Source of the DNA: Gallionella sp.
GTDB lineage: Bacteria > Pseudomonadota > Gammaproteobacteria > Burkholderiales > Gallionellaceae
Length of the DNA: 64,000 bases
Assembly (NCBI GenBank): GCA_049294375.1
Contig: JBAQCT010000155.1
Span: 5,974-69,973 of the forward strand
Direction: 5' to 3'
The translations under genes and the position numbers were made by a program. The notes below the pieces were generated by a model, which saw nothing but the letters and a program-made list of their open reading frames with translations, was not told where the DNA came from and searched no databases. Shown here piece by piece: positions 42,158-64,000 of the stretch (positions are counted from its first letter, which is position 1; each line of letters opens with the position of its first letter).

Positions 42158-42270
42158 AAAAAACTTTTTATTTTTACGCTGAGGGAAAGATTGGAAATCA
42201 CCTGGAATTTTGACTATTAATGGAGGCTGTGGTGAACTGCCGCCAATTCATTGCCTACAAAACGCTATCA

Positions 42271-44501: not shown

Positions 44502-44504
44502 AGA

Positions 44505-47682: not shown

Positions 47683-47729
47683 AGGGGGCGAGTCGCGGCA
47701 AGGCCAGAACTTGATCCCGGGTGAAGGCT

Positions 47730-48086
47730 TTAAAAGCTTTCCCCCTCACCAAGGCGCAGCAATGGCATGATCGCCACTGGCAGGCGGATCTCGAAAAACT
47801 CGCGGTAGACTCGCGCCAAGCCTATCGGCACCAAATCAAACTCGATGCGTGTCAGCGGTCGCAATTCGGTGTTGGTAACTGTCAGGCCTAATTCCTCCTT
47901 GAGTTCCCGACACAGCGCCTCTGTCGGCTGCTCGTCTTTTTCAACACCCCCGCCGAACAGGCACCAATGACCGGGGAAGAAAATACCCTTTTTGTTATCG
48001 CGCAGTTGCAAAAGATAGCGATCATCGTCGAACACGATGATCGCTGCTGCTGCGTTCCCCGGTTGCAATCTCGTTCGGTCGGCCAC
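47730..48086 (-). CDS. Nudix hydrolase
   Basis: Perfect Nudix box GGGVEKDEQPTEALCRELKEELGL (Gx5Ex7REUxEExGU). Confidence 0.88.
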   Translation of the reverse strand: MADRTRLQPGNAAAAIIVFDDDRYLLQLRDNKKGIFFPGHWCLFGGGVEKDEQPTEALCRELKEELGLTVTNTELRPLTRIEFDLVPIGLARVYREFFEIRLPVAIMPLLRLGEGESF

Positions 48087-48103
48087 GTGATGGTCAATGT
48101 ACG

Positions 48104-49018
48104 TCAGAGGAGCACCTCTAGCACATTTTCAACACTCAAGCCGTGGGCGTGCAAGAGTTCTTCATGAGTGCCGTAGCAATGAATGAAATCATCCTTCAAC
48201 GAAAAGCAATTTAATGTGCACCGGGCAGCCATATCCCACGCAATTTCCTTGACTCGCGAACCTAAACCTCCATGGGGAACGTGTTCTTCAATCACCACCA
48301 CTCGGCTGTGGCTTTCGAGTACCTGGCGGATACCGTCCTTGTCCAACGGCTTGATGGTGTGGCATGAGAGCACAGAGACTGAGAGGCCTTTAGCCTCTAG
48401 CTTCTTCGAGGTATCGAATGCCATGGCAACGGTAATGCCGTAAGAGAGAATGGCAACGTCGCTCCCTTTCTTAAGATATCGAACTTTGCCTAGCACAAAG
48501 GGATCAGCAGCCTTTGCAGTCAAGTTCGGCTCACCAGCCTTGCCCAGTCGCATGTAGACTGGGCCTTTGCTCTGGGTAGCGCACCAACGGGTGGCTAAGC
48601 CCATCTCATCTGGGTCACACGGAGCCAGTACCGTCATATTTGGAATTGCACTGGCGACTGCAATGTCCTCCATGGTATGGTGAGTGCTCCCTAGGTTAGA
48701 GTAAATTACTCCGGCACCCATGCCTATTACCGTAACGGGTAGATTTTGGTAACAGAGGTCGACCCGCACCATTTCAAACGGGCGATACAGTGAAAATGTG
48801 GCAATAGTGTAGCAAAAAGGGCGCAGTCCACGCATGGCTAGCCCTGCTGCTATACCGATCATCGACGCCTCGGCCACACCGCAATTGATAAATCGCTCAG
48901 GGAATTCCTTCTGAAACCGTACCATCGATCCGGCTGGAGAGATATCGGCAACGAGCGCACAAATACGATGATCTTCAGCGCCCACTTGATAGACTGTGTC
49001 CGCGAATCTATTTCTCAT
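48104..49018 (-). CDS. Transketolase, C-terminal (pyrimidine-binding) subunit of a split enzyme
   Basis: FINCGVAEASMIGIAAGLA block. 304 aa. Overlaps the N-terminal subunit gene by 11 nt. Confidence 0.88.
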   Translation of the reverse strand: MRNRFADTVYQVGAEDHRICALVADISPAGSMVRFQKEFPERFINCGVAEASMIGIAAGLAMRGLRPFCYTIATFSLYRPFEMVRVDLCYQNLPVTVIGMGAGVIYSNLGSTHHTMEDIAVASAIPNMTVLAPCDPDEMGLATRWCATQSKGPVYMRLGKAGEPNLTAKAADPFVLGKVRYLKKGSDVAILSYGITVAMAFDTSKKLEAKGLSVSVLSCHTIKPLDKDGIRQVLESHSRVVVIEEHVPHGGLGSRVKEIAWDMAARCTLNCFSLKDDFIHCYGTHEELLHAHGLSVENVLEVLL

Positions 49019-49859
49019 AATGGTTCTTCTGTAGTTCCTCTAAAGCTTGCAAGTATTCCGTGGCGTTGGGGGAGCGAAAATGCCAAATTGGTTCATTTTC
49101 CATGTATGACACACCGCGCCCTTTGACCGTGTTGCATATGAGCAGAAAAGGGTGATCACCTTTCCGGTTTTGTACTGCTTGATAAATCGCGTTAGCATCA
49201 TGACCATCGACTTCGATGCACTCCCAGCCGAAAGCTTCTACTTTTTCGCGAATCGGATAAAATTTTGGATGATTATCTCGGGTTCTCCCGAAGGACTGAA
49301 ATCCGTTGTGATCAAGAAAACCAATCAGATTCTTCACTCCAAGATTGGCGCCCATCATCATCGATTCCCACACGGACCCCTCTTGGAACTCACCATCGCT
49401 CATGAGCAGATATATTTTTCGTTCCGCCTTGAGCAGCCTATCTGCATGTGCCATGCCAACAGACATTCCCATACCATGCCCCAGCGAGCCAGTCGATGCC
49501 TCAATACCGGGGACACCGTAGTCTGGATGGCACCCCAAGCGCCCACCAACTTTGCAGTAAAGGTCCAAATCCGCGCGACGCAAGACACCCATTTGCTCCA
49601 GTACGACGTACTGCGCAATACCAGCGTGCCCCTTAGAAAGGATGAAGGTGTCGGGAGATGACCCGTCTGCAGCCCGGCGCATGAGTCCGTGATAGATACA
49701 ATCCATCATCTCCAATGCAGAAAATGCACCGGCAATGTGCAACGCGGTGACGTGCTGGGATATTTCCAAGATTCGCTGCCGATAATGCAAACAGCGCTGT
49801 GCCGATGCCGTATTGTCAAAGGGCGCTGAAGAGTCTAAAACCTCGGTGGTGGTACTCAT
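49008..49859 (-). CDS. Transketolase, N-terminal (ThDP-binding) subunit of a split enzyme
   Basis: GSLGHGMGMSVGMA and LMSDGEFQEGSVWE ThDP/metal-binding blocks. 283 aa. Confidence 0.88.
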   Translation of the reverse strand: MSTTTEVLDSSAPFDNTASAQRCLHYRQRILEISQHVTALHIAGAFSALEMMDCIYHGLMRRAADGSSPDTFILSKGHAGIAQYVVLEQMGVLRRADLDLYCKVGGRLGCHPDYGVPGIEASTGSLGHGMGMSVGMAHADRLLKAERKIYLLMSDGEFQEGSVWESMMMGANLGVKNLIGFLDHNGFQSFGRTRDNHPKFYPIREKVEAFGWECIEVDGHDANAIYQAVQNRKGDHPFLLICNTVKGRGVSYMENEPIWHFRSPNATEYLQALEELQKNHYEK

Positions 49860-49872
49860 AAGCTAGCCTTGT

Positions 49873-50523
49873 TTAATCTATGATGGTCCAGAACCAGTCA
49901 CCAGAATAGCCTGCCTCGCGAAAGAGATGCTGCCATCCATCTGGGTAGTCGTGATGCATGGCGGTCAGCACCCAACTTTCAAATAAAACTTTCTGCTCTG
50001 GTGTGCGATATGAATCGACCTGGATGAATCCTTTGCCAGGAGCTAGCCGTTCCATCTCCTGCACAGCGCGAACACACCGTTCACGGGGCAAGTTGTGCAC
50101 AGTATTGATCGATGTGACGGCTGCAAAGCTATTGTCAGGGAAAGGTAGGGATTCGGCACTTCCAAGATGCAAGCGCCCGACGACCTCCGGCTCGCAGTGC
50201 ATTAAGGCGTACTCAGAGACGTCGATCCCATAGGCATCAATGCCAAGCTCAAGCAGATCCTTGACGAGAAAGCCCTTGGCGCAGCCTACGTCCAAAAGAC
50301 GATCACCCGGCTTGAGATCAAAATGTTCGACAATATCTTTGGCAACGGATCGCCAACGGCCATCGTAACGAAAGCCACCATAGCCGTATTCGCGCGGACC
50401 GTCGAAATACATCTCGCCGTATTCCCGAGAAATGCGAATATGCTCGTCGGTTTTCGCACTCGCTCGAGCGGCGACGTTTCGCTTTCCCTGTGGAAGCGAG
50501 CGAAGCAAATTAATCTCTGCCAT
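49873..50523 (-). CDS. Class I SAM-dependent methyltransferase
   Basis: Motif I RLLDVGCAKGFLV followed by GIDVSEYAL. Confidence 0.85.
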   Translation of the reverse strand: MAEINLLRSLPQGKRNVAARASAKTDEHIRISREYGEMYFDGPREYGYGGFRYDGRWRSVAKDIVEHFDLKPGDRLLDVGCAKGFLVKDLLELGIDAYGIDVSEYALMHCEPEVVGRLHLGSAESLPFPDNSFAAVTSINTVHNLPRERCVRAVQEMERLAPGKGFIQVDSYRTPEQKVLFESWVLTAMHHDYPDGWQHLFREAGYSGDWFWTIID

Positions 50524-50589
50524 GATTGATAACCCTAATTATGTAAAACAAAATGTCGACACTGGCCTCATTCAAACATTACCACGTAC

Positions 50590-51693
50590 CTATTGATTGT
50601 AGAATTCAGAAATCGTCTTCAGCATAAAATCTGTATGTTCAACCTCAATAAACTGATGCGCTGGGAGGGTAATCAAGCCGTCGGCTTGCGACTCAGCCAC
50701 CGGAAAATCACCGCGCTTATAGCCCAGACTCTTCGCTGCCTCTTGCAGATGCAGCGGAATTGGATAGTGAATCTTCGCTTCTATTTCTCGATCAATAAGA
50801 TGCCGCAACAGCCGATCACGTTGTTCGAAAAGACCCATATACAGAGCAAACGTTTCGATGTGATCCGTTGGGCGCGATGGCAAAGTCACATATGGCGTAA
50901 GTGCTTTTAACCCTTGATCAAGCCGAGCAGCAATGCGACACCTCTTTTCGATCACTGCGGGTAAATCGTCGAGACCATGGCTCGCTACAATGGCTTGCAA
51001 CGGTTGCAAGCGCATATTCACCCCCCAGAATTCGATATGATCACGATCAATCATGCCGTGGTTGCGATACTTGCGCATCCACGCTGCGAGATGGTCATCA
51101 TTTGTGACGACCATGCCACCGTCACCCATCACGTTGAGTGACTTCAGTGGATGCATGCTGTAAGCATTGACTTTGCCGAACGTACCTGGGCTGCGCCCCT
51201 TGATGGATGCACCAATCCCCATGCAGGCATCTTCGACAACTGCGAGGCCATGTCTGGATGCCACAGTGCACACTGCGTCCATATCGGGTGAGGCGCCTCC
51301 CCAATGCACCGGAACAATCACCTTGGTGCGATCGGTGATCGCTGCTTCGATCTTCGAGGCGTCGATCTGGAAGCGATCATTACAATCGACAAATACTGGC
51401 TTTGCCCCACAGGCTACGATGGCACCCACGGTCGCGTAGAAGGTATTACACACCGTTATCGCTTCGTCGCCTGCTTGAAGCCCCAATGACTTGAAAGCCA
51501 ATACTAGCGCATCAGTCCCATTGTTCGTTGCGATGCAGTGCTTCATTTTCACGAAGTTCGCAAATTTTCGCTCGAAGGCCTCCATGACTGGTCCTAGTGT
51601 GAACTCAGATGACGCAATCAATTTTTCCCAGTCCTTGAAGACTGGGCCGGGGTTTGCAAACTGCATGGGCAGGTAGTTATACGAAACACGCAT
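50590..51693 (-). CDS. DegT/DnrJ/EryC1/StrS-family PLP-dependent aminotransferase
   Basis: GTFGKVNAYSMHPLKSLNVMGDGG with catalytic Lys. Tandem paralogue of the next gene. Confidence 0.88.
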   Translation of the reverse strand: MRVSYNYLPMQFANPGPVFKDWEKLIASSEFTLGPVMEAFERKFANFVKMKHCIATNNGTDALVLAFKSLGLQAGDEAITVCNTFYATVGAIVACGAKPVFVDCNDRFQIDASKIEAAITDRTKVIVPVHWGGASPDMDAVCTVASRHGLAVVEDACMGIGASIKGRSPGTFGKVNAYSMHPLKSLNVMGDGGMVVTNDDHLAAWMRKYRNHGMIDRDHIEFWGVNMRLQPLQAIVASHGLDDLPAVIEKRCRIAARLDQGLKALTPYVTLPSRPTDHIETFALYMGLFEQRDRLLRHLIDREIEAKIHYPIPLHLQEAAKSLGYKRGDFPVAESQADGLITLPAHQFIEVEHTDFMLKTISEFYNQ

Positions 51694-51715
51694 TGCGGGA
51701 TAGCCTCTTCATTAA

Positions 51716-52810
51716 TTAGCTGTAAAACTTTTCAAACATTTCCGCCACGTAGTCTTGCTGTTCATGCGTAAGCCCTGGGTACAGAGGGAGGCTCAAAATA
51801 CGTTGGCTGAGCCGCATCGTTTCTGGAAAATCCTCTGGCTTGTATCCAAGCGCTACCGCCGCAGGCTGTATGTGAATGGGTGTCGGGTAGTGCACAAGCG
51901 CCTCTATACCATGTGCCCGCAAGAAAGATTGCAATTCCTGTCGCCGATCTGCCTGAACGACGTAGGTCTGATACACGTGGTATTCGCCGTGTGCCTCTTC
52001 TGGCACCTCAACAAAACGCTTCAAAAGCCGATTGTACCGAAATGCAAGGTCACGACGCTCTTCTGTCCACCTCTCGAGTTCTGGAAGTTGAACACGCAGC
52101 AATGCTGCCTGCATCTCATCCAATCGACAATTAAAGCTCCAGAACTCACAGCGGTCTCGGCTGGTCAGGCCGTGATTCTTGCTTATATTCAGACGCTCAA
52201 TCAGTTTCGGGTCTTGAGCGGTTATGATTCCAGCATCTCCAAACGCATGAAGATTTTTCAGAGGATGAAGGCTGAAACTCGCAGCATCACCCCAATTCCC
52301 CACACGCTTGCCGAGCAGTTTCGCGCCCACAGATTGCGCTGCATCTTCGAGCACAAAAAGGCCATGACGCTTCGCGATGTCGTTGATCTCCCGCATCTTG
52401 GCCGGACGTCCAGTCAAATGAACTGGAATAATTGCCTTGGTGCGCGTGGTAATTGCACGCTCGATCTGTTCTGGATCAATATTCAAATCTTTCATCACAT
52501 CGGCAAAGACGGGTTTCGCGCCAGTCAACGCAATGGTTGAGGCCGAAGCGATGAATGAGTTCGGCGCGGTGATGACTTCGTCACCAGTGCCGACCCCGAT
52601 TGCTCTGAGCGTCAGATGCAACGAGCTTGTGCCATTTGAAATGCCGGTGGCATATGGGGCGCCGCAGAACTCAGCAAACTCTTTTTCAAAGCTCGCGCAC
52701 TCTGGCCCCTGAATGTACCGACCGCTGTCAAGTACCTGCTCAAAAGCGTGGATTAGTTGTGCGCGGATGGGTGCGTTTTTATTTTGGAATGCGGTGTATG
52801 GTATTCGCAT
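51716..52810 (-). CDS. DegT/DnrJ/EryC1/StrS-family PLP-dependent aminotransferase (WbpE-like position)
   Basis: GNWGDAASFSLHPLKNLHAFGDAG with catalytic Lys. Confidence 0.88.
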   Translation of the reverse strand: MRIPYTAFQNKNAPIRAQLIHAFEQVLDSGRYIQGPECASFEKEFAEFCGAPYATGISNGTSSLHLTLRAIGVGTGDEVITAPNSFIASASTIALTGAKPVFADVMKDLNIDPEQIERAITTRTKAIIPVHLTGRPAKMREINDIAKRHGLFVLEDAAQSVGAKLLGKRVGNWGDAASFSLHPLKNLHAFGDAGIITAQDPKLIERLNISKNHGLTSRDRCEFWSFNCRLDEMQAALLRVQLPELERWTEERRDLAFRYNRLLKRFVEVPEEAHGEYHVYQTYVVQADRRQELQSFLRAHGIEALVHYPTPIHIQPAAVALGYKPEDFPETMRLSQRILSLPLYPGLTHEQQDYVAEMFEKFYS

Positions 52811-52849
52811 GATTGCGGTAATTGTGTTTTAGCTCTGGGGAAACGCATA

Positions 52850-52878
52850 ATTATAATGCGACTTTGTCGCTGTGACAG
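52850..52878 (-). promoter_or_regulatory. Candidate internal sigma70-type promoter overlapping a 13-bp palindrome
   Basis: The minus strand reads CTGTCA (52878-52873), a 17-nt spacer, then a perfect TATAAT (52855-52850). The palindrome CGCTGT-G-ACAGCG (52868-52880) overlaps the -35 hexamer. It lies in the 101-nt gap upstream of the DegT gene that starts at 52810. Confidence 0.3.
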
Positions 52879-52911
52879 CGGCGCATCCTAATATTTATTA
52901 ATCTGCCTTGT

Positions 52912-53811
52912 CTACGGAGTGGCGCGCATTTCGTGTCTCAAAAGTACTGCTACTTTCCTGAGCCCCTCGTCCAATGGCATGCATCGAAAATCGGGGAATG
53001 CCGCATGTAAATTAGCGACATCGAACGCACGCAACCCGTTGTGCGGTATCGGTCCCATCCGAGAGCTAACGTTAATTCTTGTGGCACTTGGTAGCAAATG
53101 GGTCACCTGCTTCGCGATTTCCTCGAATGAGGCCACCTCACCAACGGCGATGTTCAAAACGCCATTGCTACGATGCAATAGCACACGACTTACGACCTCT
53201 GCCACATCTTCGACACACACATGGTCTCGGCGCTCCTCGCCTTCACCGAAGAGAACGATGTTGTCGCCTGCGGCCGCCAGCCTCATGAAGCGGTTCGGGC
53301 CATAGCCGTTATGCGGATCGCCGATACCGTAAATCAAGGTTGGCCTCAGAAAGCACAAGGGGCCGCTGAATGCGTTGGCCAACATGACTTCTCGCGTTAG
53401 ATGCATCACACCGTGTAGGGATCCTGGCTGAGCGCACGAGCGCTCAGTTAGAGGCGATTCACTGTCGGCATATACCGCGTCGGAACTGATGTATACCACG
53501 TGGCTGACTGGCGACTTTTTTAACCCTTCGCACACTGCAGCGCCCATGCGGATATTCTCGATCAACATCGCTTCAGTCTTGACCGGTGCCTTTGCCGAAA
53601 CGAAAAGGAGCGAGTCATCGGGGCGCAGAATGTCTGCAAGTCGAGTGCTGGCGTCCGCACTGGTTAGGTCGAGCTCTGTGCGCGGCAGTGCAAGAACTGG
53701 TGCGCCCAAGGCTTCGAGGCGTCTTATTGTGGCTGTGGCCACAAACCCCGCTGATCCAAGGATAACTATTCGGGCGGGGTTAGTCGGATGGTCGTGTAGA
53801 TGGGTTAACAT
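52912..53811 (-). CDS. Extended-SDR-fold protein (epimerase/dehydratase family), apparently lacking the YxxxK catalytic pair
   Basis: Rossmann ILGSAGFVATATI and ISSDAVY. Where other SDRs in this locus have P-x-S-x-Y-x-x-S-K, this one reads PGSLHGVMHLTRE (H...H). Alignment is by eye. Confidence 0.7.
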   Translation of the reverse strand: MLTHLHDHPTNPARIVILGSAGFVATATIRRLEALGAPVLALPRTELDLTSADASTRLADILRPDDSLLFVSAKAPVKTEAMLIENIRMGAAVCEGLKKSPVSHVVYISSDAVYADSESPLTERSCAQPGSLHGVMHLTREVMLANAFSGPLCFLRPTLIYGIGDPHNGYGPNRFMRLAAAGDNIVLFGEGEERRDHVCVEDVAEVVSRVLLHRSNGVLNIAVGEVASFEEIAKQVTHLLPSATRINVSSRMGPIPHNGLRAFDVANLHAAFPDFRCMPLDEGLRKVAVLLRHEMRATP

Positions 53812-53814
53812 GAG

Positions 53815-55101
53815 CTAGGTTAATCCGGGTCGCTGCACTCGCGCACCAAGCGTCGAGTAAGTAAAGCCTTGGGCGTTCAACGCATTGCCGTCGATTACCT
53901 GATATGGGTCGATAACGGTTCGGCAACGCATGCGCTGCGCCAGATCGTCTGCGGTGATTGCGCGAAACTCAGGCCATGGCGTCATGATTACGAGTGCATC
54001 TGCGTTGTCTGCCGCTTCCAGTGCAGTACTTGCACGCCTCACATTTGGGCCTGCGGCATTAGTGGCCGCTACCGGATCGAAAGCAATGACATCCTTATCG
54101 ATAAGCTTTTCGATCAATGCGATTGCCGGGGAGTTCTTCAGCGAATTAGTATTCTCCTTGTATGTGAGACCTAGCACAGCTATGCGAGCCGCAGGATTGC
54201 TGCGCAACACCAACGCGTTTAACGTATCCCATGCCCAGTCTCTACGATGGCGTGAATTTTCAACAAACGCCGATACAACCCTGCCGTCTGTCACGTACTG
54301 GCCTGCGAGGCGCAGCACGGTCGCGAGATCGCGCTCCAGATTACCTCCAGCAATACCCAAGCCCGCATTCAGATAGGCATGCTGGCCGATACGCTTATCC
54401 AAACGAAGTGCAGGCACAATCTCCGGCCAATCTGCGCCTATGCGCTCACAGATTTCTGCCAGAGTATTCGTGACGCTCACTGAAGCCACAAGGTACATGT
54501 TGATGGAAATCTTGGTGAGTTCTGCACTCTCGTAACGCATTGACAAGATCGGGCAGCCAAAACTACCAAGGAAGTGTGCCAATATTGGTGGCAGCGGCTG
54601 CGTAGACTCGGCGCAGCCGACGATAAAGCGCTCTGGAAAACGCGCACGCTCCATCGCACGCCCGAAAATAAGCGTCTCCACCTGATAATGCAGCATGCGT
54701 CCGGGGCGCAGTCGCGCACGCGTGAAGCCGGGCGGAACCTGGCTTAGGATAACCATTACGGCATCAGGGCGCAGCACTGCGTCGACCTGTCTGATCAAGG
54801 TGTCAATACCCCCAAGGTCGCTCTGCCCGTTATCATCGGTCGGCACATCCGGTGCAACGTAAATCAGATCACAGGAAATCAACTCTTTGGGGTCGGCTGT
54901 GAATCTGATTCGGCACGCATTCTTTTCCAGTAGCTCGGGCAAATCTGGCTCGATGACTGGCAATTCGCCGCGTTCGAGAGTGGCGACAAGCAGCGGATCA
55001 GGGTCATAGCACAGGATGTTAAACCCTCTGTCGGCCGCCGCCGCTGCGGAATTGAGTCCGAGGTGAGTCATGCCGGCATAGCCGATGATGTGGCCGGTCA
55101 T
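53815..55101 (-). CDS. UDP-glucose/GDP-mannose dehydrogenase-family nucleotide-sugar 6-dehydrogenase (WbpA-like position)
   Basis: N-terminal IGYAGMTHLGLN Rossmann and C-terminal IAVLGLTYKENTNSLKNSPA block. 428 aa. Confidence 0.88.
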   Translation of the reverse strand: MTGHIIGYAGMTHLGLNSAAAAADRGFNILCYDPDPLLVATLERGELPVIEPDLPELLEKNACRIRFTADPKELISCDLIYVAPDVPTDDNGQSDLGGIDTLIRQVDAVLRPDAVMVILSQVPPGFTRARLRPGRMLHYQVETLIFGRAMERARFPERFIVGCAESTQPLPPILAHFLGSFGCPILSMRYESAELTKISINMYLVASVSVTNTLAEICERIGADWPEIVPALRLDKRIGQHAYLNAGLGIAGGNLERDLATVLRLAGQYVTDGRVVSAFVENSRHRRDWAWDTLNALVLRSNPAARIAVLGLTYKENTNSLKNSPAIALIEKLIDKDVIAFDPVAATNAAGPNVRRASTALEAADNADALVIMTPWPEFRAITADDLAQRMRCRTVIDPYQVIDGNALNAQGFTYSTLGARVQRPGLT

Positions 55102-56027
55102 TTGATCGCCTCCAATGAGCGTCGGGAAAGGTCGTTCAGCACGGCATTGATCCAGATGTCATTCTCGATATTGCTTTCGCCGTTTGTGCACAACTGCTTG
55201 AAATGCTGGTATTCAAGCTCCCATGTCGGGTCGGGCTGAACCAAGGTTACTGCCTCCTCGTCCGGTTTTCCGCTGGGCAGTTTACGGTCGCGAAGGGTGA
55301 AGGTGCTGGGACCCCATTTGCAAAGCGATTGAATGTGCGCGCTACCCTTTTCTGCAAACACATCGGCGTAAAAATGATTGCGCCAGTTGAGCAGAGTCAT
55401 TTCGAATTGCAGCGCTGGCGCGCCATTGGTACCAAATGCAAAGTGATCGAAAGATTTGTTCTCGAAACGGTTGCACGAATAAATTTCAAACGGCGTAGTC
55501 GGCTTGCCGAACCAGAACAACGCAGTATCGAGCAGGTGCGACCCCAGGTCAGGCAGCACGCCTGCCCCCTGATCGCGCCAGGCAGAATCGCGCACCAAAC
55601 GCGCCGTACCATTGCCGTAAAACATGCGCACACAATAGATCTTGCCGAGCCGCCCCGACTCGATCACTTGCTTCATGCGCACGAAGTGCGGTTCGAAACG
55701 GTGATTATATGCGGTATAGCAGACGACGCCCTTTGAGCGTGCGATTTTTGCAAGTGCATTGAGCGTGCTGTTGTCGGGTGCGAACAGCGGTTTTTCGACC
55801 AGCAGATGTTTGCCGTTGCTCAGCAGATGGGTGAGCAACTCGATCTTGGTATCGTCTGGAGTGCATACCAATGCAGCGTCGTACGCGCCAAGCGGCACGT
55901 CGGCCAGGGATCGGAAAGTGGCCTCTGGATGCACGGGATCCACGGTCGCGACCACTTCTTTTTCTGCGACAGCGCGTCGCTTGTTTCCCTGCACACCGAG
56001 GCCGACGACAATAACGCGCATGACCAT
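55098..56027 (-). CDS. Gfo/Idh/MocA-family NAD(P) oxidoreductase (WbpB-like position)
   Basis: MRVIVVGLGVQG Rossmann and VEKPL motif. The start is ambiguous among ATG 56021, 56027 and 56039. Confidence 0.85.
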   Translation of the reverse strand: MVMRVIVVGLGVQGNKRRAVAEKEVVATVDPVHPEATFRSLADVPLGAYDAALVCTPDDTKIELLTHLLSNGKHLLVEKPLFAPDNSTLNALAKIARSKGVVCYTAYNHRFEPHFVRMKQVIESGRLGKIYCVRMFYGNGTARLVRDSAWRDQGAGVLPDLGSHLLDTALFWFGKPTTPFEIYSCNRFENKSFDHFAFGTNGAPALQFEMTLLNWRNHFYADVFAEKGSAHIQSLCKWGPSTFTLRDRKLPSGKPDEEAVTLVQPDPTWELEYQHFKQLCTNGESNIENDIWINAVLNDLSRRSLEAIK

Positions 56028-56028
56028 G

Positions 56029-57597
56029 TTATTGCCCATCGTAACGGTATAGGGTGTGCGTTTCCACACGATGAATTTTCTTTCTGACGGCCTCGGGCGT
56101 CACCGGCCAATTGCCATCGTGCTCGCATTCCACACCAGACGCCATGCAGCCCAGTATGGACGCAATAGCCTCATTCTTGGTGGCGATCATGGCAAGTGTC
56201 GCATATGCCAGCATCGCATCGCCGGCGCCGACAGCATCCACAACTTGCTCGACAAAGCTGTCGATGGCGAAAAAGGCTTGGTAGTCCTCCTGCGGCCTCG
56301 AACGATAGGTAATTATGCCGCGCTCGCCCATTTTGAGGATCAGCGTCTTGCATTTCGAGCGGTGGTATAACTCGCGCGCAAGCGGGCGTACCACCGAATC
56401 TTGATCCCCCAGCGCAAACCGGGCTTCGCGCTCATTCGGGGTAATCAGGTCGAACCCTTCGAACTCGAGAATATTGCCCCAGCGGCTCGCCACCTGACTG
56501 TCAGCGACACGGTAAGCATCGGGCGGAATTGCCGAAACTAGATCGGGAATCGTGTTCCGGTTGAATATGCCGTGGCGGAAATCGCTGAATGCGACCGCAT
56601 CCGCCTTGTTCTGGGATATTTGTTTTTTTAACTGCTCCACGTTCTTGCCGGAAATAGAACGGTTGTCCAGAGTATCGACCTTGAGTAACCGGTAGCCTTC
56701 CGCAACAATGGCGTTTTTGTTGGTGGTCGGACGTGTCTCGTCGATGATGGCATGAACCTCAACGCCGGCTTTTTCGAGATCATCAAGCACGAAGTCCTTC
56801 AGCGCATCATTGCCGAGTACCGTGGAAAATGTTACCTCCGCCCCCGCTGCCTTGAGGTGCTTCGCAACGATTGCAGCACCTCCGACATAATCGACTTTCT
56901 TTTGAAACAGCACGCTTATGGTCGGCGTCTTGGTCATGCCGCCGATCATGTTGCAATAGGTATAGCTGTCGACAATGGTGTCACCGACGACGTGGACTTT
57001 AATGCCCTTGTATTTGTTAAGGGCTCCATAGAGGTCGCTGAAACCGATGCCCTCTGCTGCCATGAGAGACATCAGTTTTTCAGTGGCAATCTTGGGCGGG
57101 GCGAGCTCGATCAGCGCCGAGGAAGAGTAAACGATGTCGCCTGGGGTGAAGAGAACTTCGCCGCCATAGGTTTCCAGAACTTGCATTTCTTCTTGGGTTC
57201 TGGGATCTATTCCGCTGCTGGAATATTCGTATCCCTTGGCGAAATAATCGGGCTGGATGATGCCCAGATTTTCGAGCGGTGTTGGCTGGTGGTCGATGAT
57301 GACAAAATCGACTACTTCCAGCGCAGCCAGGTTGATTGCCCGCAAATCCTCTGGAACGTAGGGGCGAAAATTTGCTTTCTTGATGTGCTCGTCCGAGGTG
57401 AGGCTTGCGATCAGAATGTCACCCTTTGTCTTTGCGTACAGCAGATGCCGTACATGCCCCGGATGAACCACATCGAATGCCCCGTGACACATGATCACTT
57501 TTTTCCCCCGCGGCCGCGGCCGCGGCCCGATGATTGCGCAAAGCTGTTCTACCGTCTTGATCTTGCGCTCAACCAGATTTTTGCTTGTCTGATCCAT
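56029..57597 (-). CDS. Bifunctional nucleotidyltransferase / PfkB sugar kinase (HldE-like, but with domain order reversed)
   Basis: The N-terminal cytidylyltransferase-fold block is VIMCHGAFDVVHPGHVRHL (GxFDxxHxGH). The C-terminal ~330 aa is ribokinase/PfkB-like, ending in DAVGAGDAML. Confidence 0.85.
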   Translation of the reverse strand: MDQTSKNLVERKIKTVEQLCAIIGPRPRPRGKKVIMCHGAFDVVHPGHVRHLLYAKTKGDILIASLTSDEHIKKANFRPYVPEDLRAINLAALEVVDFVIIDHQPTPLENLGIIQPDYFAKGYEYSSSGIDPRTQEEMQVLETYGGEVLFTPGDIVYSSSALIELAPPKIATEKLMSLMAAEGIGFSDLYGALNKYKGIKVHVVGDTIVDSYTYCNMIGGMTKTPTISVLFQKKVDYVGGAAIVAKHLKAAGAEVTFSTVLGNDALKDFVLDDLEKAGVEVHAIIDETRPTTNKNAIVAEGYRLLKVDTLDNRSISGKNVEQLKKQISQNKADAVAFSDFRHGIFNRNTIPDLVSAIPPDAYRVADSQVASRWGNILEFEGFDLITPNEREARFALGDQDSVVRPLARELYHRSKCKTLILKMGERGIITYRSRPQEDYQAFFAIDSFVEQVVDAVGAGDAMLAYATLAMIATKNEAIASILGCMASGVECEHDGNWPVTPEAVRKKIHRVETHTLYRYDGQ

Positions 57598-57600
57598 TGA

Positions 57601-58602
57601 TTAACGATCCTCCGAAGATAATGTAGCAAACCAAGTCGTCGTCGCCTTGGCGATGGTTTCTGGATCCCACAAAGGCGCGTTGCGCCAATATTCGATATTA
57701 TCGCGAATGCGCCTCACGCCTTCTTCAAAGCTTATCTCCTGCTTCCAGCCCAGTTGGGTCTGGATTTTAGTGATGTCTGCCCAGGTGCAATCGGGTTCAC
57801 CAGGCCGTTTTGGAATATGTATTACCGATCCGCCGAGCAATTCGACCAAGCGATTTATACTCTGTGGATTTCCTGCGCCGAGATTGTAGATCTCTCCGGC
57901 ACGCTTGGTTTCGGCAGCACTGTAAAAGGCGCGCGCAACGTCGGTTGCATACAGGAAATCGCGCGACTGCGCGCCATCGCCCACGACGGTAAAGGGCTTT
58001 CCTTCCAGTTTCTGCCTTAGAAAAACGCCGAATACCGCACCATAGGCGCCTGATGTTCGCGAACGCGTGCCGTAGGCGTTAAATATTCGGATCGAATTGA
58101 CCGGCAATCGATATACCTGATGCCAGTGGAAGCAGGCCTGCTCGCCTTGATACTTGCTCAGTGCATACGGATACTGCGGTGCAATCGGATGGTCTTCGCG
58201 CGTCGGCACCTTCGCGAGGCCGTAGCATGAAGACGATGCGGCGTAGACAAATTTTTGTACCCCGGCATGTCGTGCACACTCGAGCATGTGTACCGTACCC
58301 TGAACATTTGTAGACATGTACTCGATCGGCTGTTCGATAGAAGGCACTATATCGCCGACCCCGGCGAAATGAAATACATACTTCGCATCCTTGAAGAATT
58401 TGTCCCCGGCCGCAAAGCTGCGAATATCGCGCCGCTCAAGCGCTAGTGGACAATTCTGGTGGTGGGAAAGATTTTCTTCGCGACCGCCCACAAGATTATC
58501 GATTACTCGAACCTCGAACCCCTTCTCGACAAGCAAATCAACCATGTGACTGCCGATGAAACCGGCACCGCCCGTAACGATGGCGATAGGGCGAGCCGTC
58601 AT
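57601..58602 (-). CDS. NAD-dependent nucleotide-sugar epimerase/dehydratase (extended SDR)
   Basis: VTGGAGFIGSHMV Rossmann, YALSK catalytic motif. 333 aa. Confidence 0.88.
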   Translation of the reverse strand: MTARPIAIVTGGAGFIGSHMVDLLVEKGFEVRVIDNLVGGREENLSHHQNCPLALERRDIRSFAAGDKFFKDAKYVFHFAGVGDIVPSIEQPIEYMSTNVQGTVHMLECARHAGVQKFVYAASSSCYGLAKVPTREDHPIAPQYPYALSKYQGEQACFHWHQVYRLPVNSIRIFNAYGTRSRTSGAYGAVFGVFLRQKLEGKPFTVVGDGAQSRDFLYATDVARAFYSAAETKRAGEIYNLGAGNPQSINRLVELLGGSVIHIPKRPGEPDCTWADITKIQTQLGWKQEISFEEGVRRIRDNIEYWRNAPLWDPETIAKATTTWFATLSSEDR

Positions 58603-58754
58603 TTTGCGCCTACCACTTTCATCGTGCGCGCGTTGCGATAGCGGGTGCCGAAGATAATGTCAAAAACGGCAACATCCAAACCCTCTTCGAGCAACTGCGG
58701 CATCAATATCCTTCCGTAGTAGCCTGCCCGGCCAACTGCCAATGCCTTTTTCAT
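58599..58754 (-). CDS. Small ORF (51 aa) encoding only a Rossmann beta-alpha-beta unit; possible remnant of a displaced SDR gene or a coupled leader ORF
   Basis: Hand translation: MKKALAVGRAGYYGRILMPQLLEEGLDVAVFDIIFGTRYRNARTMKVVGAK. An AAGGGGA Shine-Dalgarno sits 4-5 nt upstream of ATG 58754. Its TGA overlaps the ATG of the next gene (ATGA at 58599-58602). It is below the 60-aa cutoff of the ORF track. Confidence 0.3.
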   Translation of the reverse strand: MKKALAVGRAGYYGRILMPQLLEEGLDVAVFDIIFGTRYRNARTMKVVGAK

Positions 58755-58834
58755 ACCGTCCCCTTAATATTTGCAGATTGCGAGTTTGCGATAATTCAAA
58801 CGACCTAGTTGTTCCTGGTGCGAGAGAATCGAGA

Positions 58835-59563
58835 TCAAGATGTAAGCGCAATTTTGTATCCGGCAGCTTGAGCGTCCGTGTGGAACATCTGGACGGTTTC
58901 GAGCGAATATTGTTCCAGATCCTTGTCGACCAGGGAAAGCTTCTTCAGGATGTCGTTTGTAGCGGTGATGATATGGCACCCGACTGAGTCGGCCTGAAAA
59001 ATATTGAACAGCTCGCGCGGGCTGGCCCAGATCAGTTCGGACCTTGGTTTTGCGCGCATGATTTTTACGGCTTCCGCCATTAACGGAACCGGGTCGCGCC
59101 CCGTGTCGGCAATGCGCCCCGCAAACACGGAAATGATTGCCGGTGTGTCCGGTGCGAGTCGCTCTGTAACGCTCTTCACTTGATCGAGCGAGGTCAGGGC
59201 AGTGACGTTAAGTGAGACCCCTGCATTCGATAAGCTTTCGATCAGAGAGCCGGCAAACTCTTTTCTGGTATTGGTTACCGGAATCTTGACACTCACATTT
59301 TTGCCCCACGATGCGATCTCCAGCGCTTGGCGCTCCATTTCATCGAACTCGTCGGCGAATACCTCAAACGAGATTGGCATATCCGGTACTGCTTCGAGCA
59401 CCTGGTGCGCAAATGCCTTGTAGTCCTGCACACCTGCCTTGCGCATTAGCGTCGGATTGGTGGTGAAACCCTTGATCAACGGGTTGGCGTACATTTCCCT
59501 TATTCCGGCAAGATCAGCCCCGTCGGCAAAAAGTTTTATTTTAAGACTTGCAATCGTGCTCAT
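58835..59563 (-). CDS. Transaldolase / fructose-6-phosphate aldolase-family (short type) enzyme
   Basis: KLFADGADL...GFTTNPTLM...VSVKIPVT (Schiff-base Lys region)...VTALTS family blocks. Confidence 0.88.
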   Translation of the reverse strand: MSTIASLKIKLFADGADLAGIREMYANPLIKGFTTNPTLMRKAGVQDYKAFAHQVLEAVPDMPISFEVFADEFDEMERQALEIASWGKNVSVKIPVTNTRKEFAGSLIESLSNAGVSLNVTALTSLDQVKSVTERLAPDTPAIISVFAGRIADTGRDPVPLMAEAVKIMRAKPRSELIWASPRELFNIFQADSVGCHIITATNDILKKLSLVDKDLEQYSLETVQMFHTDAQAAGYKIALTS

Positions 59564-59587
59564 ACTGCTTGTTCCTTTCGTAGATAA

Positions 59588-60112
59588 TCATTTTTGAAAA
59601 ATCAGTCTGCTCGCGTCTTCAAGCGATACGACCACCGCGTCCGGATTATCGGCGCGGCGCTCCCGGTATTCATAATCGATAAAAAAAGTGTAGCAGCCTG
59701 CCGCTTTTCCAGCAGCCACGTCACGCCATCGATCCCCTACAATAAAACTGCGCGCGAGGTCTATATGCCATTCGCGAGCTGCTTCAATCAGCATTCCAGG
59801 TTTTGGCTTGCGGCAATCGCAGCCGCTTGCATCCACGTGATAACACACCTTGATGTCATCGCATAATCCTGCTGCGCGCAGCTTATCGTGCATCGCCTCC
59901 ACCACTTCCCGGCGCTGGACTCCCGTGGCGACATCGGGCTGGTTCGTGACAACAACGATCAAGAAGCCGGCTTTGCGCAGAGCACGCATCGCGCGTTCGG
60001 CTCCCGGGAGAAGCTCGAAATCATCGATAGTAGCCGGAGGATATGGTATTCCGTCGCGCACCACAGCGCGATTGATGACACCATCACGATCGAGGAACAC
60101 CGCTCTTTTCAC
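59588..60112 (-). CDS. gmhB: D-glycero-D-manno-heptose 1,7-bisphosphate phosphatase (HAD)
   Basis: VFLDRDGVIN (DxD), VVTNQPDVA, Zn-loop CYHVDASGCDCRKPKPGM, and GDRWRDVAAG. Confidence 0.9.
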   Translation of the reverse strand: MKRAVFLDRDGVINRAVVRDGIPYPPATIDDFELLPGAERAMRALRKAGFLIVVVTNQPDVATGVQRREVVEAMHDKLRAAGLCDDIKVCYHVDASGCDCRKPKPGMLIEAAREWHIDLARSFIVGDRWRDVAAGKAAGCYTFFIDYEYRERRADNPDAVVVSLEDASRLIFQK

Positions 60113-60154
60113 GTCAGTTCACGTTAGTTGTGTAGCGGGTCCAGTGTGTGACCC

Positions 60155-60736
60155 TTACCATTTCGTTGCGATTTGCTGCAGGCCGGGATGCGACACGAGG
60201 CAATGCCAGACTACCGCCTGAAATGCTTCGGTGTGTGGAGTAATTCTGGTGTCGTCTATAGTGGGGATAACGATCACGGCATCGCCAACCTGTTTGGTAT
60301 AGCCGCCATCACGCCCAACCACCCCCATTATTGTTAGCTCACGGGTTTTGGCTTCTTTAAGAGCTTGTACGATGTTGGTGCTTACATTCTTTTCCACGTT
60401 ACCGCCGCCGACCGAAAATACGAACACCGCATCGTTTGAATTGGCTTTACTGGTGCGCAACCACGCGGCGAAAACAGTCTCCCACCCTTCATCGTTGGTG
60501 CGAGCGGTCAATTCCGATACATTATCAACAGGCGTATAAGCCTCAATACCGCAAAGTTTGCGAAAGTCGTTTACCGCATGACTACAGTTCGCCGCGCTGC
60601 CACCAACCCCTAACAAGAATAATCGTCCTCCGCGTTTGCGAAGAGCTGACAGTTCGGAAACCATCCTTTCTATTGCCGTTACATCAATCGATTTTGCTAT
60701 TTCACTTACTTCTTCAAAATATTTTTTCGTGTGCAT
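60155..60736 (-). CDS. gmhA: SIS-domain sedoheptulose-7-phosphate isomerase
   Basis: 193 aa. GGRLFLLGVGGSAANCSHAVNDF SIS block, and context next to gmhB and the HldE-like gene. Confidence 0.85.
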   Translation of the reverse strand: MHTKKYFEEVSEIAKSIDVTAIERMVSELSALRKRGGRLFLLGVGGSAANCSHAVNDFRKLCGIEAYTPVDNVSELTARTNDEGWETVFAAWLRTSKANSNDAVFVFSVGGGNVEKNVSTNIVQALKEAKTRELTIMGVVGRDGGYTKQVGDAVIVIPTIDDTRITPHTEAFQAVVWHCLVSHPGLQQIATKW

Positions 60737-60802
60737 ACGATGTATTCTCTCACTGGTTCTAGGGGGATTCGGAAAGCAGGCGCTGATGGAGCGAGTGCCC
60801 CT

Positions 60803-61897
60803 TTAAATAAAATTTACATGCTGAACGGGATTTTCGCATAACTGGAAGAGATAGCGATTAACTTCGTCCATGCGGCAATTCTTTCGGCAGTCTTTGATGT
60901 TCAATTCATTGCGAACAAAGAAGAAACTCTGGCGCCGTCGCTCGCCTTCCCATATTTCTTTGAAACTTTGCTCATTCACGTTGCCATATTCGAATCGCTT
61001 GTCTTCGAGATACGCGCTGCAACCATAGACTCTCCCATCGGTCATGATATGCGCCCAGACGAACGGTGTGGACAGGCACTTGGTATAGCGCTCCGAGTCC
61101 TGGACGTATTTTTTCATAGTGTTGGCGCGACAGATCAGCGAAAAGAAATCAGTTGACAAGGGTTCCAGCTTCTCGGCTATGGCTGTGTATGCGGAGTAAT
61201 CGACATCATGCTGGTTTTGGCTAAAAAGGTGCTGGGAGTACGGCTTGACCACCAAGTAATCAAGACCTATTTCGTCACGGCACAGCTTGGCTAGAGCCTC
61301 TATTTCGTGGGCGTTTTCCGGTATGAGCAAAATTTGGGCGCCAATCGTGCAATCGAGATGATTGGAATTTCGATAATTAATCGCCTTTTTCAAATTTTCT
61401 ATGACTCTTGAGAAATCGCGTTCGCGTGTACGATGAATCCTGGCGTAGGTGTCTGCCGTTCCCGCATTGACGGATGCCTTTATCCATGACACATGTCGAA
61501 TGGACTTCTGAATAAATTCATCATTTAACAATGTGGCGTTGGTCTGAAAGGCCATGTCAATGCCAGCATTCTTTGTCATCTCGACAATTTCGTTGATCTT
61601 CTTGTGCAGCAAAGGCTCTCCTTCGCCGGCATACATTATGCTCTTGACGCCTAAAGCACCCATTTCTGGTAGAAGGCGCTCCAGCATTTTAATGTCATAC
61701 ATGATCGACTTGTAGCCGATGTAATCATAAGCACAAAAAGTGCAGCGATGATTGCAGGCACCGACTGGAGACATTTCCACATAAATGGGATAGACGGCCT
61801 TCGCTTTTTCCCAGTCGCCACCCGCATCCATCAGTTGAGCGACCCGCTTGGGGTGGTACATGAGTTTGTGGCTATCGATACGAAAAATGTCGGACAT
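60803..61897 (-). CDS. Radical SAM enzyme with C-terminal SPASM/twitch-like domain
   Basis: CNHRCTFC motif. C-terminal [20 protein letters not shown]...CRKNC. Confidence 0.85.
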
Positions 61898-61927
61898 CGT
61901 TATGCTTTTCTGAGGTTTGAAATAAAG

Positions 61928-63724
61928 TCAGGCATTGAGCATCTGCTTGAATGTTTCATTGGATCCCACCAATTCCTGAAAGGTGCCATGCTGCACTATT
62001 TTGCCATGATCGAGGAGGTAGATCACATCGCAATCTTTTACCGTAGTCAAGCGGTGTGCAATCATGACGATGGTGATTTTGTGAGACAGCGCTTGAATAG
62101 TATCGATAATAATGCGCTCTGTGATCCCGTCCAGAGCGCTGGTAGCTTCATCCAACACCAACACTTTGGGGTTGTGGTAAAGCGCACGGGCGATGCCGAT
62201 GCGCTGACGTTGTCCGCCACTCAGTCGCACGCCCCGCTCTCCTACGATGGTTTGATAATTATTAGGGAGTTCCAGAGTTACGAAGTCATGTAAATTGGCA
62301 ATGCGCGCGACCTCTTCCACTCGTACCATGTCAATGGAATTTGCCGGGCAGCCCAACGCAATATTGCTCGCAATCGTATCATCCACCAAGTAGATTTGCT
62401 GGGGAACATACCCCACATTTTTTTGCCAGCTTTTTACGTTTGATGGAGTAATTCTTTTGCCGTCCACGCGCATTTCCCCTGCTTGCGGCTCGAGTAAACC
62501 AAGGATGATGTCGATAAGCGTTGATTTCCCCGAGCCGGTTGTGCCAACCAATCCGATGGAGGTGTTATTTTTGATACAGAGCGAGAGATTATTGATAACC
62601 GGTGAGTCGCATTCCGGGTAAGTGAAGAAAACGCTGTCAAGCTTAATATCTCTAGAGTAAGGCATTGCCTCTTGTGGGCATACGTAAGTAGAAAATGTAA
62701 CGGGTAAACTGCTCAAATCCCTTTTTAGATTCTGAAGGGCTGGAAAGGTATAACGGATATTAGAAAGGCTTTGAAAAATTTGCTGGATCGCCGGTAGCAT
62801 CCGGTAGCCTGCGAAGGCATACAAAGCGATCAATGGAAAAGCGATAGAAATATCCTTTCTTAACCCGAGCAAATAAACCAGAATCAGCAGCATTCCGCCA
62901 AACGCCATGGACTCTATGGCATATTTTGGCAGCAAAGAAAGTGTGTAGCCGATTACCTTGTAGCCGGCCTGAAGTTTTGATGAAATGGAAAACCGCTCGA
63001 CAAAGGCCTGTTCTTTTCCGAGTAGCTTGATTTCTTTGGCACCGCCCAATGCTTCATTGGTGAATTTGTAGTTTTGCGTATTTGCTTCGGAGGAAAGTTG
63101 TCCATTATCCAGCAACTTGCGTCGAATCAAAATGTATGTGACCGAATATGCCGTACCAATGATCAAGGCAACCGTTATGGCCAGTAGCGGGTCAATAAAC
63201 ATCAGCATGATCAGCATCAGCAAAACTACCATAGCTTTAGTGATGAGCTGCATTACCGGAATGATTGCTCCGGTAACTACGGTTTCGGTTTCTGTAAGGA
63301 TATTTTTGGATAATATGGCGCTATTTGTACGCAAGAAAAAAGGAAAAGGTTGAGCCAAGTAAGAAGTTAACAAGCGCTCTGCCAATTTTTGCTCAAAAGC
63401 AAAGGCAAAACGGTATAGCATCCATGCAGACAGTGCGGAAATAGCATTGCCAGCCATCATGATAAAGAAAAATATAAGTCCGGCTAAAAACAAAAAGCGG
63501 TTAATGCTGGAAAATCCCATATAGGTATACATGGAATGAATATACTGGTTGGTTTGTATGATTTCCGGCTTGGCGACGATAGCCATAAAGGGCATTATGG
63601 AGACAACGCCCATAACCTCAATGATTGAGGTTAGAAAAATCACAAATAGCAATACTAATGCTTGCTTACGATCACTATGGCTAAATAGCGATAAAATGTC
63701 GCGTAAGGGGGGTAATAAAAGCAT
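61928..63724 (-). CDS. Half-size ABC exporter (fused TMD-NBD, MsbA/PglK-like)
   Basis: About six N-terminal TM helices. Walker A GTTGSGKST, signature LSGGQRQR, Walker B VLVLDEATSALD. First gene of the cluster. Confidence 0.9.
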   Translation of the reverse strand: MLLLPPLRDILSLFSHSDRKQALVLLFVIFLTSIIEVMGVVSIMPFMAIVAKPEIIQTNQYIHSMYTYMGFSSINRFLFLAGLIFFFIMMAGNAISALSAWMLYRFAFAFEQKLAERLLTSYLAQPFPFFLRTNSAILSKNILTETETVVTGAIIPVMQLITKAMVVLLMLIMLMFIDPLLAITVALIIGTAYSVTYILIRRKLLDNGQLSSEANTQNYKFTNEALGGAKEIKLLGKEQAFVERFSISSKLQAGYKVIGYTLSLLPKYAIESMAFGGMLLILVYLLGLRKDISIAFPLIALYAFAGYRMLPAIQQIFQSLSNIRYTFPALQNLKRDLSSLPVTFSTYVCPQEAMPYSRDIKLDSVFFTYPECDSPVINNLSLCIKNNTSIGLVGTTGSGKSTLIDIILGLLEPQAGEMRVDGKRITPSNVKSWQKNVGYVPQQIYLVDDTIASNIALGCPANSIDMVRVEEVARIANLHDFVTLELPNNYQTIVGERGVRLSGGQRQRIGIARALYHNPKVLVLDEATSALDGITERIIIDTIQALSHKITIVMIAHRLTTVKDCDVIYLLDHGKIVQHGTFQELVGSNETFKQMLNA

Positions 63725-63919
63725 GGATGGGCAGAATTGCTAAAAAATTTTGGTTCGTGATAGTTGCACTTAAATACGGCAGGATGTTTATCGAAATCTT
63801 GGTTACCGAAAAGGCGATTTGAAGCGAAAGCTGCTAAACAGAACCCTGGCCTAATGTTGCGGCATAGTTTAATCGGCAACTGTCAGATTAAGCCTGAACT
63901 ACTGTGCATGCTTTTCAGG

Positions 63920-63931
63920 CACGCTACCGCC
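63920..63931 (-). promoter_or_regulatory. ops / JUMPStart core element (putative RfaH-type antiterminator loading site)
   Basis: The minus strand reads GGCGGTAGCGTG, an exact match to the enterobacterial ops consensus GGCGGTAGnnTG. It lies ~195 nt upstream of the first start codon of the cluster, on the non-template strand. Confidence 0.55.
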
Positions 63932-64000
63932 CTGCAAAATACTGGCGTATTTCGCATAACATGTTAATTATTAATATAATTACTACGCGGCCTGAACAAC

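Follow-up and report, generated by a model that had tools for sequence, protein, structure and literature searches.

A probable ops site in a conserved, hairpin-bearing JUMPstart-like element between rfaH and a glycan gene cluster of Gallionella sp.

Introduction

Does a 12-nucleotide (nt) motif at the head of a long glycan gene cluster in Gallionella sp. work as an ops site, the DNA signal that recruits the NusG paralogue RfaH to transcribing RNA polymerase? The question is raised by a 64,000-nt stretch of contig JBAQCT010000155.1 (GenBank assembly GCA_049294375.1, positions 5,974 to 69,973 of the forward strand), here called the window, in which a first-pass annotation made from the letters alone had noted an exact ops 12-mer on the minus strand, about 195 nt upstream of the first start codon (63724) of a 56-kb co-directional cluster, and had interpreted it as a signal for RfaH. 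The analysis reported here indicates that the 12-mer is probably a working ops site, placed within a 47-nt JUMPstart-like element. An rfaH stop codon precedes this element by 26 nt, and a putative glycan operon of about 56 kb starts 195 nt after the 12-mer.

The ops motif and its position

Read directly in the window, the minus strand from 63931 to 63920 is GGCGGTAGCGTG, and a pattern search returned the same site, which bears out the exact 12-mer. The same 12 letters end the Escherichia coli JUMPstart 39-mer, and they fit the 12-nt ops consensus GGCGGTAGnnTG on the sense strand, the site and the glycan cluster sharing one direction. The list of open reading frames (ORFs) confirms its placement at the head of the cluster: ATG 63724 is the most upstream start of the first ORF and lies 195 nt downstream of the motif. 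The minus strand carries two exact matches to the pattern GGCGGTAGNNTG and the plus strand none; 0.09 are expected in the window, and two or more occurred in none of 100 dinucleotide shuffles of it.

The other match, GGCGGTAGTCTG at 60218..60207, was ruled out as a second element: it lies in a coding region, has neither the hairpin nor the conserved flanks described below and is not reported by the covariance model R1 even at E<=10. A one-mismatch copy, GGCGGTAACGTG (60395-60406, minus strand, sense), also falls within the SIS/GmhA-like ORF 60155-60736, again without hairpin or conserved flanks. These two copies may be chance occurrences or may provide an internal reloading site.

The gene upstream of the motif

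The end of the window lies inside an upstream ORF that is co-directional with the cluster and continues beyond the window. Its C-terminus was read from L024, a 4.2-kb Logan contig from the best-matching sample that is 100% identical to the window over the 1.2 kb compared and extends 69 nt further, which gives 28 residues, EKRVIVLLELLGKANKIRINRDWVVQAA. In look-ups of identical proteins, the radical-SAM protein of the cluster led to this contig, and the ABC transporter, AtpD and AtpG gave no match. The 28 residues are identical to the end of a 170-residue metagenome orthologue (the L075 protein), which scores 160.4 bits on the NCBIfam RfaH model TIGR01955 (cut-off 144.5) and 130.8 bits on NF006534 (cut-off 124). 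The L027 protein scores 164.6 and 139.4 bits, respectively, and a divergent protein from L133 reaches 139.7 and 111.1 bits, just under both cut-offs; two of the three tested orthologues thus pass both RfaH equivalog models. The L075 protein has a NusG N-terminal domain; of the solved structures, that of E. coli RfaH matches it best (E=2e-24), and the identity to E. coli RfaH is 36%. In addition, 27 of the 28 residues are shared with P0133, a protein from a Gallionella metagenome-assembled genome (MAG) that NCBI names RfaH, and homologues carry this name at both NCBI and JGI; the 12 best homologues retrieved all differ from the 28-residue stretch at one or more positions. At the DNA level, the end of the window aligns with rfaH of L075, L081 and L145, the last being a locus of Gallionella sp. 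GCA_028689145.1. The specialised NusG paralogue that the first-pass interpretation called for is therefore encoded directly upstream of the motif, as judged from the 28-residue C-terminus and from the orthologue that passes the RfaH models, and the presence of a cognate RfaH in the same genome is supported.

Most residues expected to matter for RfaH function are kept. E. coli K10, R23, Q24, T72 and R73 correspond to K13, R26, Q27, T75 and R76 here; among 33 homologues the first, second and third of these are invariant and T75 and R76 are at least 90% conserved. Likewise, E48, I93, F130 and R138 of E. coli RfaH are kept as E51, I96, F137 and R145. We take R23, Q24 and H20 of the E. coli protein to be ops-DNA contacts, T72 to belong to the DNA side and R138 to the interdomain side. 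Contact with ops DNA through K10 and R73 and autoinhibition through E48, I93 and F130 are published for E. coli RfaH (PMC7593976).

A conserved element of 47 nt

The ops motif forms the 3' part of a larger unit that consists of a 10-bp hairpin, a single G, the ops 12-mer and then CCTGAA. A covariance model, R1, built here from 96 related copies of the element, recovers it at 63960..63914 with 71.6 bits (E=2.3e-21) as the sole full copy in the window. Among JGI metagenome contigs, the 20-mer TTTTGCAGGGCGGTAGCGTG was found in at least 120 stretches, and the metagenome loci compared in this work are among the matches listed. The element also occurs in Gallionella sp. GCA_028689145.1. The 12-mer is thus conserved upstream of related loci, which, together with the adjoining rfaH, supports the interpretation as an RfaH/ops system. 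Conservation extends past the searched 20-mer, with TTATGCGAAAC... on one side and CCTGAA on the other, and the consensus among the matches listed is TTATGCGAAACACGnnnGTG-TTTTGCAGGGCGGTAGCGTG-CCTGAA. The Rfam JUMPstart model (RF01707) also hits the site, at 63944..63920 with 25 bits (E=0.0021), in an alignment that keeps the 5' CAG and the ops end and skips the hairpin of the model. No similarity to the leader of the window was found in E. coli genomes.

The limits of the element are equally apparent from metagenomic sequence. When contigs from four metagenomes are aligned to positions 63890-64000, read depth rises several-fold exactly over ~63913-63962; many of these contigs match this block alone, with unrelated sequence on both sides, and variation within it is limited to a few positions. 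In other metagenome contigs the match to the window ends at 63913-63919. The element also marks the start of divergence between whole loci, since four of them are near-identical through the rfaH end, the spacer and the element and diverge right after GTGCCTGAA. Near-identity up to this point and divergence beyond it indicate that the element marks the conserved edge of a variable locus. Independent short-read assemblies (Logan contigs) break within or just past the rfaH 3' end, L024 at ~64069 and a 23.6-kb contig (run X4) about 21 nt past 64000; it is likely that rfaH and the element form a junction common to strains with different flanks.

An RfaH-type C-terminus ends upstream of the element in 58 of the 93 distinct loci with enough upstream sequence, which places rfaH directly upstream in at least 62% of loci. 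The distance from the rfaH stop to the hairpin clusters at 22-28 nt (28 of the 58 loci), and a partly conserved TTAATCAATA-like tract in the spacer is confined to the rfaH-adjacent copies. In the remaining 35 of 93 loci, the element lies away from rfaH. Such copies, where checked, are found ahead of or between co-directional polysaccharide genes that include a deacetylase with DUF3473, WecB (UDP-GlcNAc 2-epimerase), AsnB-like proteins, a Wza-like exporter and a Bac_transf sugar transferase. The longer downstream open frame lies on the strand of the element in 50 of 62 loci. The element of L109 (2535-2581) precedes a GlcF-like iron-sulfur (CCG/Fer4) protein (ORF 2637-3945), the sole clear non-glycan context among those checked.

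In L145, the order of features is priA (on the opposite strand), a helix-turn-helix (HTH) gene, rfaH, a 26-nt spacer, the hairpin with ops and a glycan cluster. The last differs from that of the window and comprises a PseB-like epimerase/dehydratase, DegT, NeuB, a cytidylyltransferase and a radical-SAM/SPASM enzyme. The HTH gene encodes a 115-residue HTH_24/MarR-like protein (L145 9657-10004, also L146 1346-1693) and overlaps the rfaH start by 4 nt, an arrangement that suggests a two-gene regulator unit ahead of ops in L145. In seven further loci (L063, L092, L113, L069, L066, L055 and L067), the first ORFs after rfaH and ops resemble toxin-antitoxin genes, namely Phd/YefM and VapB antitoxins and DUF4258, DUF2283 and NTase_sub_bind proteins. 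The conserved edge of the glycan locus looks like a place where toxin-antitoxin modules settle.

A covarying hairpin 5' of ops and a local stem 3' of it

The 5' half of the conserved hairpin pairs with TTTTGCA just ahead of ops. Across 100 distinct loci, 98.2% of the pair cells are standard pairs, a value that falls to 35-61% when the 3' arm is slid. Compensatory, two-sided changes were counted in 20 cells against 3.5 in shuffles, a level reached in 0 of 500 shuffles. Where only one side of a pair has changed, the result on the sense strand is almost always G.U, and on the reverse strand a non-standard pair; as the same pairs would be mismatches on the reverse strand, RNA is favored over a duplex operator as the conserved form. 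Seven of the ten 3'-arm positions were fixed by the search pattern, so that it is the free 5' arm and the three apical pairs that supply the covariation evidence. The predicted stability is about -14 kcal/mol for the 41-nt segment (z -2.4). A conserved stem-loop directly 5' of ops has been reported for JUMPstart (PMC2864571); this trait is present here, with covariation.

A second structure, a 7-bp stem directly 3' of ops, had been pointed out in the first-pass annotation. Its formation stood up in the predictions, as it appears in both the minimum-free-energy and the centroid fold, and its conservation did not: 102 distinct segments downstream of ops adopt unrelated predicted shapes, with folds no more stable than those of shuffles (median z 0.2). 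In the absence of a shared fold, the 3' stem was rejected as a conserved part of the element. It belongs to this locus alone, and the conserved hairpin is the one 5' of ops.

Proposed mechanism

In the mechanism proposed for this locus, RNA polymerase would arrive from upstream, either by read-through of rfaH or from a promoter overlapping the rfaH end, would make the 10-bp hairpin and would then pause within ops. The exposed non-template ops DNA would recruit RfaH and lift its autoinhibition. RfaH would then stay on the polymerase, exclude NusG and block Rho-dependent termination across the 56 kb, and it may also help to load ribosomes on a leader without an evident Shine-Dalgarno sequence. 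The whole long operon would be expressed as a result. The hairpin, which ends 12 nt before U11 of ops, would most likely tune the pause from the RNA exit channel, by a longer pause or less backtracking. Probably this RfaH also serves, in trans, other copies of the element ahead of exopolysaccharide operons, as the copies that lie away from rfaH suggest.

In the leader between the element and the first start codon, no intrinsic-terminator-like site was found, and no Shine-Dalgarno-like purine-rich run in the ~17 nt before ATG 63724. As for the promoter, a distance of 22-28 nt from the rfaH stop to the hairpin leaves no room for a separate promoter in the spacer. The pair of hexamers proposed in the first-pass annotation (TTGTTC, 17 nt, TATTAA) was not sustained: TTGTTC falls in the last rfaH codons and TATTAA in the spacer, and the site is weak, not in the consensus scan and not conserved. 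A further candidate, TTCAGG-18-AATAAT (8/12, by eye), was set aside as weak and not conserved in other loci. A promoter scan of L145 gave nothing on the relevant strand.

Several observations weigh against the identification of a working RfaH/ops system. The Rfam scan at the gathering threshold returned nothing, JUMPstart scoring 25 bits where 35 are required. No sigma-70-like site was detected by the consensus scan on the minus strand in the region of the rfaH end and spacer. No RNA-seq runs containing the sequence were found. On the side of the factor, an invariant Asn stands where E. coli RfaH has H20. The window includes no more than 18 nt of rfaH, and the integrity of the gene is accordingly judged from orthologues. 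In an AlphaFold2 model of the orthologue P0127 (33 homologues), the N-terminal domain is confident and residues 107-170 have a predicted local distance difference test score (pLDDT) below 50, so that autoinhibition has no structural support from the C-terminal domain. Finally, the suggested role of the hairpin in pausing draws on spacing and on general properties of hairpin-dependent pauses.

Alternative explanations

The best-surviving alternative, though still an unlikely one, accepts ops as functional and treats the hairpin as unrelated to pausing: it could be a 5' stabilizing stem-loop after processing, a partial attenuator of rfaH read-through or a shield against Rho loading. Such a role at an RNA boundary would suit a stable stem: in about half of the loci next to rfaH it follows the stop codon of that gene at 22-28 nt, and copies away from rfaH lie between co-directional genes. 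Against this, no U-tract follows the stem, which is therefore not a canonical terminator, and the E. coli JUMPstart hairpin abuts ops likewise. Moreover, the 1-nt gap to ops is fixed in all aligned loci, including copies far from rfaH, which ties the hairpin to ops rather than to the rfaH end.

Less probable still is that the conserved block is a duplex DNA operator or part of a promoter, in which the inverted repeat TGCGAAAYAC/GTRTTTTGCA would be bound by a dimeric regulator, for instance the small HTH protein before rfaH, and the ops-like 12-mer would be a neighboring or unrelated box. The hairpin arms do form an inverted repeat, an HTH_24/MarR-like gene does overlap the rfaH start in L145, and the spacer is AT-rich. 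However, one pair is a near-universal G.U (95 of 100 loci), almost all one-sided changes are wobble-compatible on the sense strand and A.C mismatches on the other, and the apical pairs covary instead of keeping fixed bases. In addition, the adjoining 12-mer is that of E. coli ops and stands beside an RfaH whose DNA-contact residues are kept.

That the 12-mer is a chance match or a non-working relic in this genome is scarcely credible: although only a fragment of rfaH lies in the window, no RNA-seq run with the sequence was found and the match at 60207-60218 is a case of the 12-mer lacking the other parts of the element, 0.09 matches per window are expected by chance, the full 47-nt element reaches E=2e-21, its position and spacer are the same as in many loci with intact rfaH, and a related strain (contig 96% identical) has no listed change in 63914-63942.

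With a hairpin-bearing ops site read by RfaH as the preferred explanation, a broader proposal can be made, which is tentative and on balance doubtful. The HTH gene, rfaH, the hairpin and ops might together constitute a self-contained, portable anti-termination cassette at the conserved edge of hypervariable glycan loci of Gallionellaceae and related betaproteobacteria, with an autoinhibited, ops-dependent RfaH made in cis, loaded at a hairpin-stabilized ops pause and acting also in trans on PEP-CTERM-type exopolysaccharide operons. If true, this would represent a class of pause in which a his-type exit-channel hairpin is combined with the non-template-DNA signal of ops, and a single factor would co-ordinate the surface and extracellular polymers by which these iron oxidizers handle iron minerals.

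Features of the locus, the glycan cluster and the host

The coordinates of all features are collected in Table 1.

Table 1. Features of the window and of the leader region, with positions counted from the first letter of the window.
Feature	Position	Strand	Basis and remarks
Whole JUMPstart-like element, 47 nt	63914..63960	-	Covariance model R1
Conserved 10-bp hairpin UGCGAAAUAC-GCCA-GUAUUUUGCA	63933..63956	-	One G.U pair; ends 1 nt before ops; predicted fold
Probable ops element GGCGGTAGCGTG	63920..63931	-	Sense (non-template) strand; direct read and pattern match
CCTGAA 3' extension	63914..63919	-	Moderately conserved, >=70% per column (alignments A1, A3)
7-bp stem-loop GCCUGAA...UUCAGGC	63892..63920	-	63920-63914 with 63898-63892; shares G63920 with ops; predicted fold
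3' end of rfaH	63983..64000	-	Last 5 sense codons V V Q A A; TAG stop at 63985-63983
AT-rich spacer, 26 nt, rfaH stop to hairpin	63957..63982	-	Direct read
Leader, element to first start codon	63725..63913	-	Direct read
First cluster gene, ABC transporter, fused membrane and ATPase domains, 598 aa	61928..63724	-	Pfam ABC_membrane and ABC_tran
Co-directional array, ~50 genes, ~56 kb	7078..63724	-	ORF list, Pfam, NCBIfam; presumed target operon
Second exact ops-pattern match GGCGGTAGTCTG	60207..60218	-	In frame inside SIS/GmhA-like ORF 60155-60736
Six atp genes (subunits a, b, delta, alpha, gamma, beta)	340-6619		NCBIfam

Homologues of the ABC transporter encoded by the first cluster gene follow the same element in L126, L046 and L049. 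The gene caller had started this gene at 63586 (552 aa) and not at 63724 (598 aa); the latter is the better start, as the N-terminus it gives resembles, by eye, those of the homologues after the same element in L126 and L046. Among reference genomes, the best homologues of the transporter are 40-52% identical and come from unrelated taxa, none of them with the element, and are for that reason uninformative on its conservation.

The genes that follow include heptose-pathway genes (SIS/GmhA-like, HAD and kinase/cytidylyltransferase), ManC, methyltransferases, epimerases and glycosyltransferases, as well as six DegT aminotransferases, three B12-binding radical-SAM and two radical-SAM/SPASM enzymes. 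This content suggests a highly modified glycan that contains heptose or nonulosonic acid. Among the other genes are one for a 748-aa protein that joins NeuB to a xylose-isomerase-like TIM barrel and those for transaldolase- and transketolase-like proteins. The cluster is unusually rich in tailoring enzymes, with examples at 36717-38963, 40475-42157, 26040-27893 and 16616-18154 (minus strand). Large ORFs without a Pfam match at E<=1e-6 were found at 42271-43521, 22943-24781, 13476-15017 and 31636-32736. The adjacent atp operon (1-8000) has a G+C content of 54-57%, and parts of the cluster drop to 41-48%, which would fit their having been acquired horizontally; such a drop is typical of horizontally variable surface-glycan loci. 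Stretches of low G+C (41-47%) lie at 18001-20000, 24001-28000, 40001-46000 and 62001-64000.

Regarding the host, AtpG is 86-91% identical to proteins of Gallionella, Sideroxydans and other Gallionellaceae/Nitrosomonadales MAGs, and the window DNA was found in soil, groundwater and aquatic metagenomes only. Gallionella is a betaproteobacterium in NCBI taxonomy, and GTDB puts that betaproteobacterial group inside Gammaproteobacteria. Annotation pipelines also name RfaH in this group already, and a position outside the Gammaproteobacteria is therefore less striking than it appeared in the first-pass annotation.

Comparison with known systems

By sequence, orthology of the factor and layout, the system described here appears to be that of RfaH, ops and JUMPstart, a known mechanism in a new lineage. 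RfaH itself is already annotated in these genomes. The spread of RfaH across Proteobacteria has been published (PMC7593976), and the text supplements of that paper do not list these taxa. In the literature searched, no paper was found on ops or JUMPstart elements in this lineage or joining RfaH, ops and Betaproteobacteria, and the top-ranked literature on RfaH with Gallionella or related genera showed no link between them.

RfaH and ops have been studied almost only in enteric pathogens, and the same signal is found here letter for letter in uncultured environmental iron oxidizers, where the element fronts large, horizontally variable glycan clusters and several exopolysaccharide operons. Polysaccharides of Gallionellaceae are linked to stalk formation and to the avoidance of mineral encrustation, and the present findings point to control of these polymers at the level of transcription elongation. 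With the 47-nt element and R1 as a marker, metagenomes can be searched for RfaH regulons and for the conserved edge at which variable surface-glycan loci begin.

The closest comparison is with the RfaH-ops system of E. coli and Salmonella, in which the same 12-nt ops lies within the 39-bp JUMPstart (RF01707), a 39-mer present in 5,392 of 5,426 complete E. coli genomes. There too, a hairpin is predicted directly 5' of ops, and the E. coli element stands between galF and rfbB, just as here a conserved upstream gene is followed by a variable, long glycan operon of low G+C. The factor is orthologous, as it passes the equivalog models and keeps the contact and autoinhibition residues. The differences concern the hairpin, which here is unrelated in sequence, has 10 bp and is more strongly conserved (about 7 bp are predicted in E. 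coli), the lack of a second GGTAG box upstream, and the host, an environmental betaproteobacterial lineage and not a member of Enterobacterales. In addition, rfaH is usually linked in cis to the element here, whereas E. coli rfaH is unlinked to its targets.

A further comparison is offered by the leader pauses of his and trp, in which about 11-12 nt separate the hairpin base from the paused 3' end downstream of it; the 12 nt from the stem to U11 of ops would match this arrangement as far as spacing in the sequence goes. In enterobacteria, by contrast, the ops pause is described as needing no hairpin and as prone to backtracking. The covarying hairpin one base before ops provides a natural variant with which to ask if nascent-RNA structure modulates the ops pause.

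Finally, in the UpxY proteins of Bacteroides capsule loci, LoaP of Firmicutes and the monomorphic RfaH homologues, the gene of the factor lies beside its target, as is presumed here. The NCBIfam models of UpxY and LoaP match the present proteins more weakly and below their cut-offs. Monomorphic RfaH homologues encoded in cis are reported to lack some of the ops-binding residues and to act without ops (bioRxiv 10.64898/2026.03.16.712203). In contrast, the proteins described here score best as RfaH, keep E48, I93 and F130 and are found with a canonical ops; by combining rfaH in cis with such an ops, the system would stand midway between the "cis, constitutive" and "trans, autoinhibited" states that have been proposed in the evolution of RfaH.

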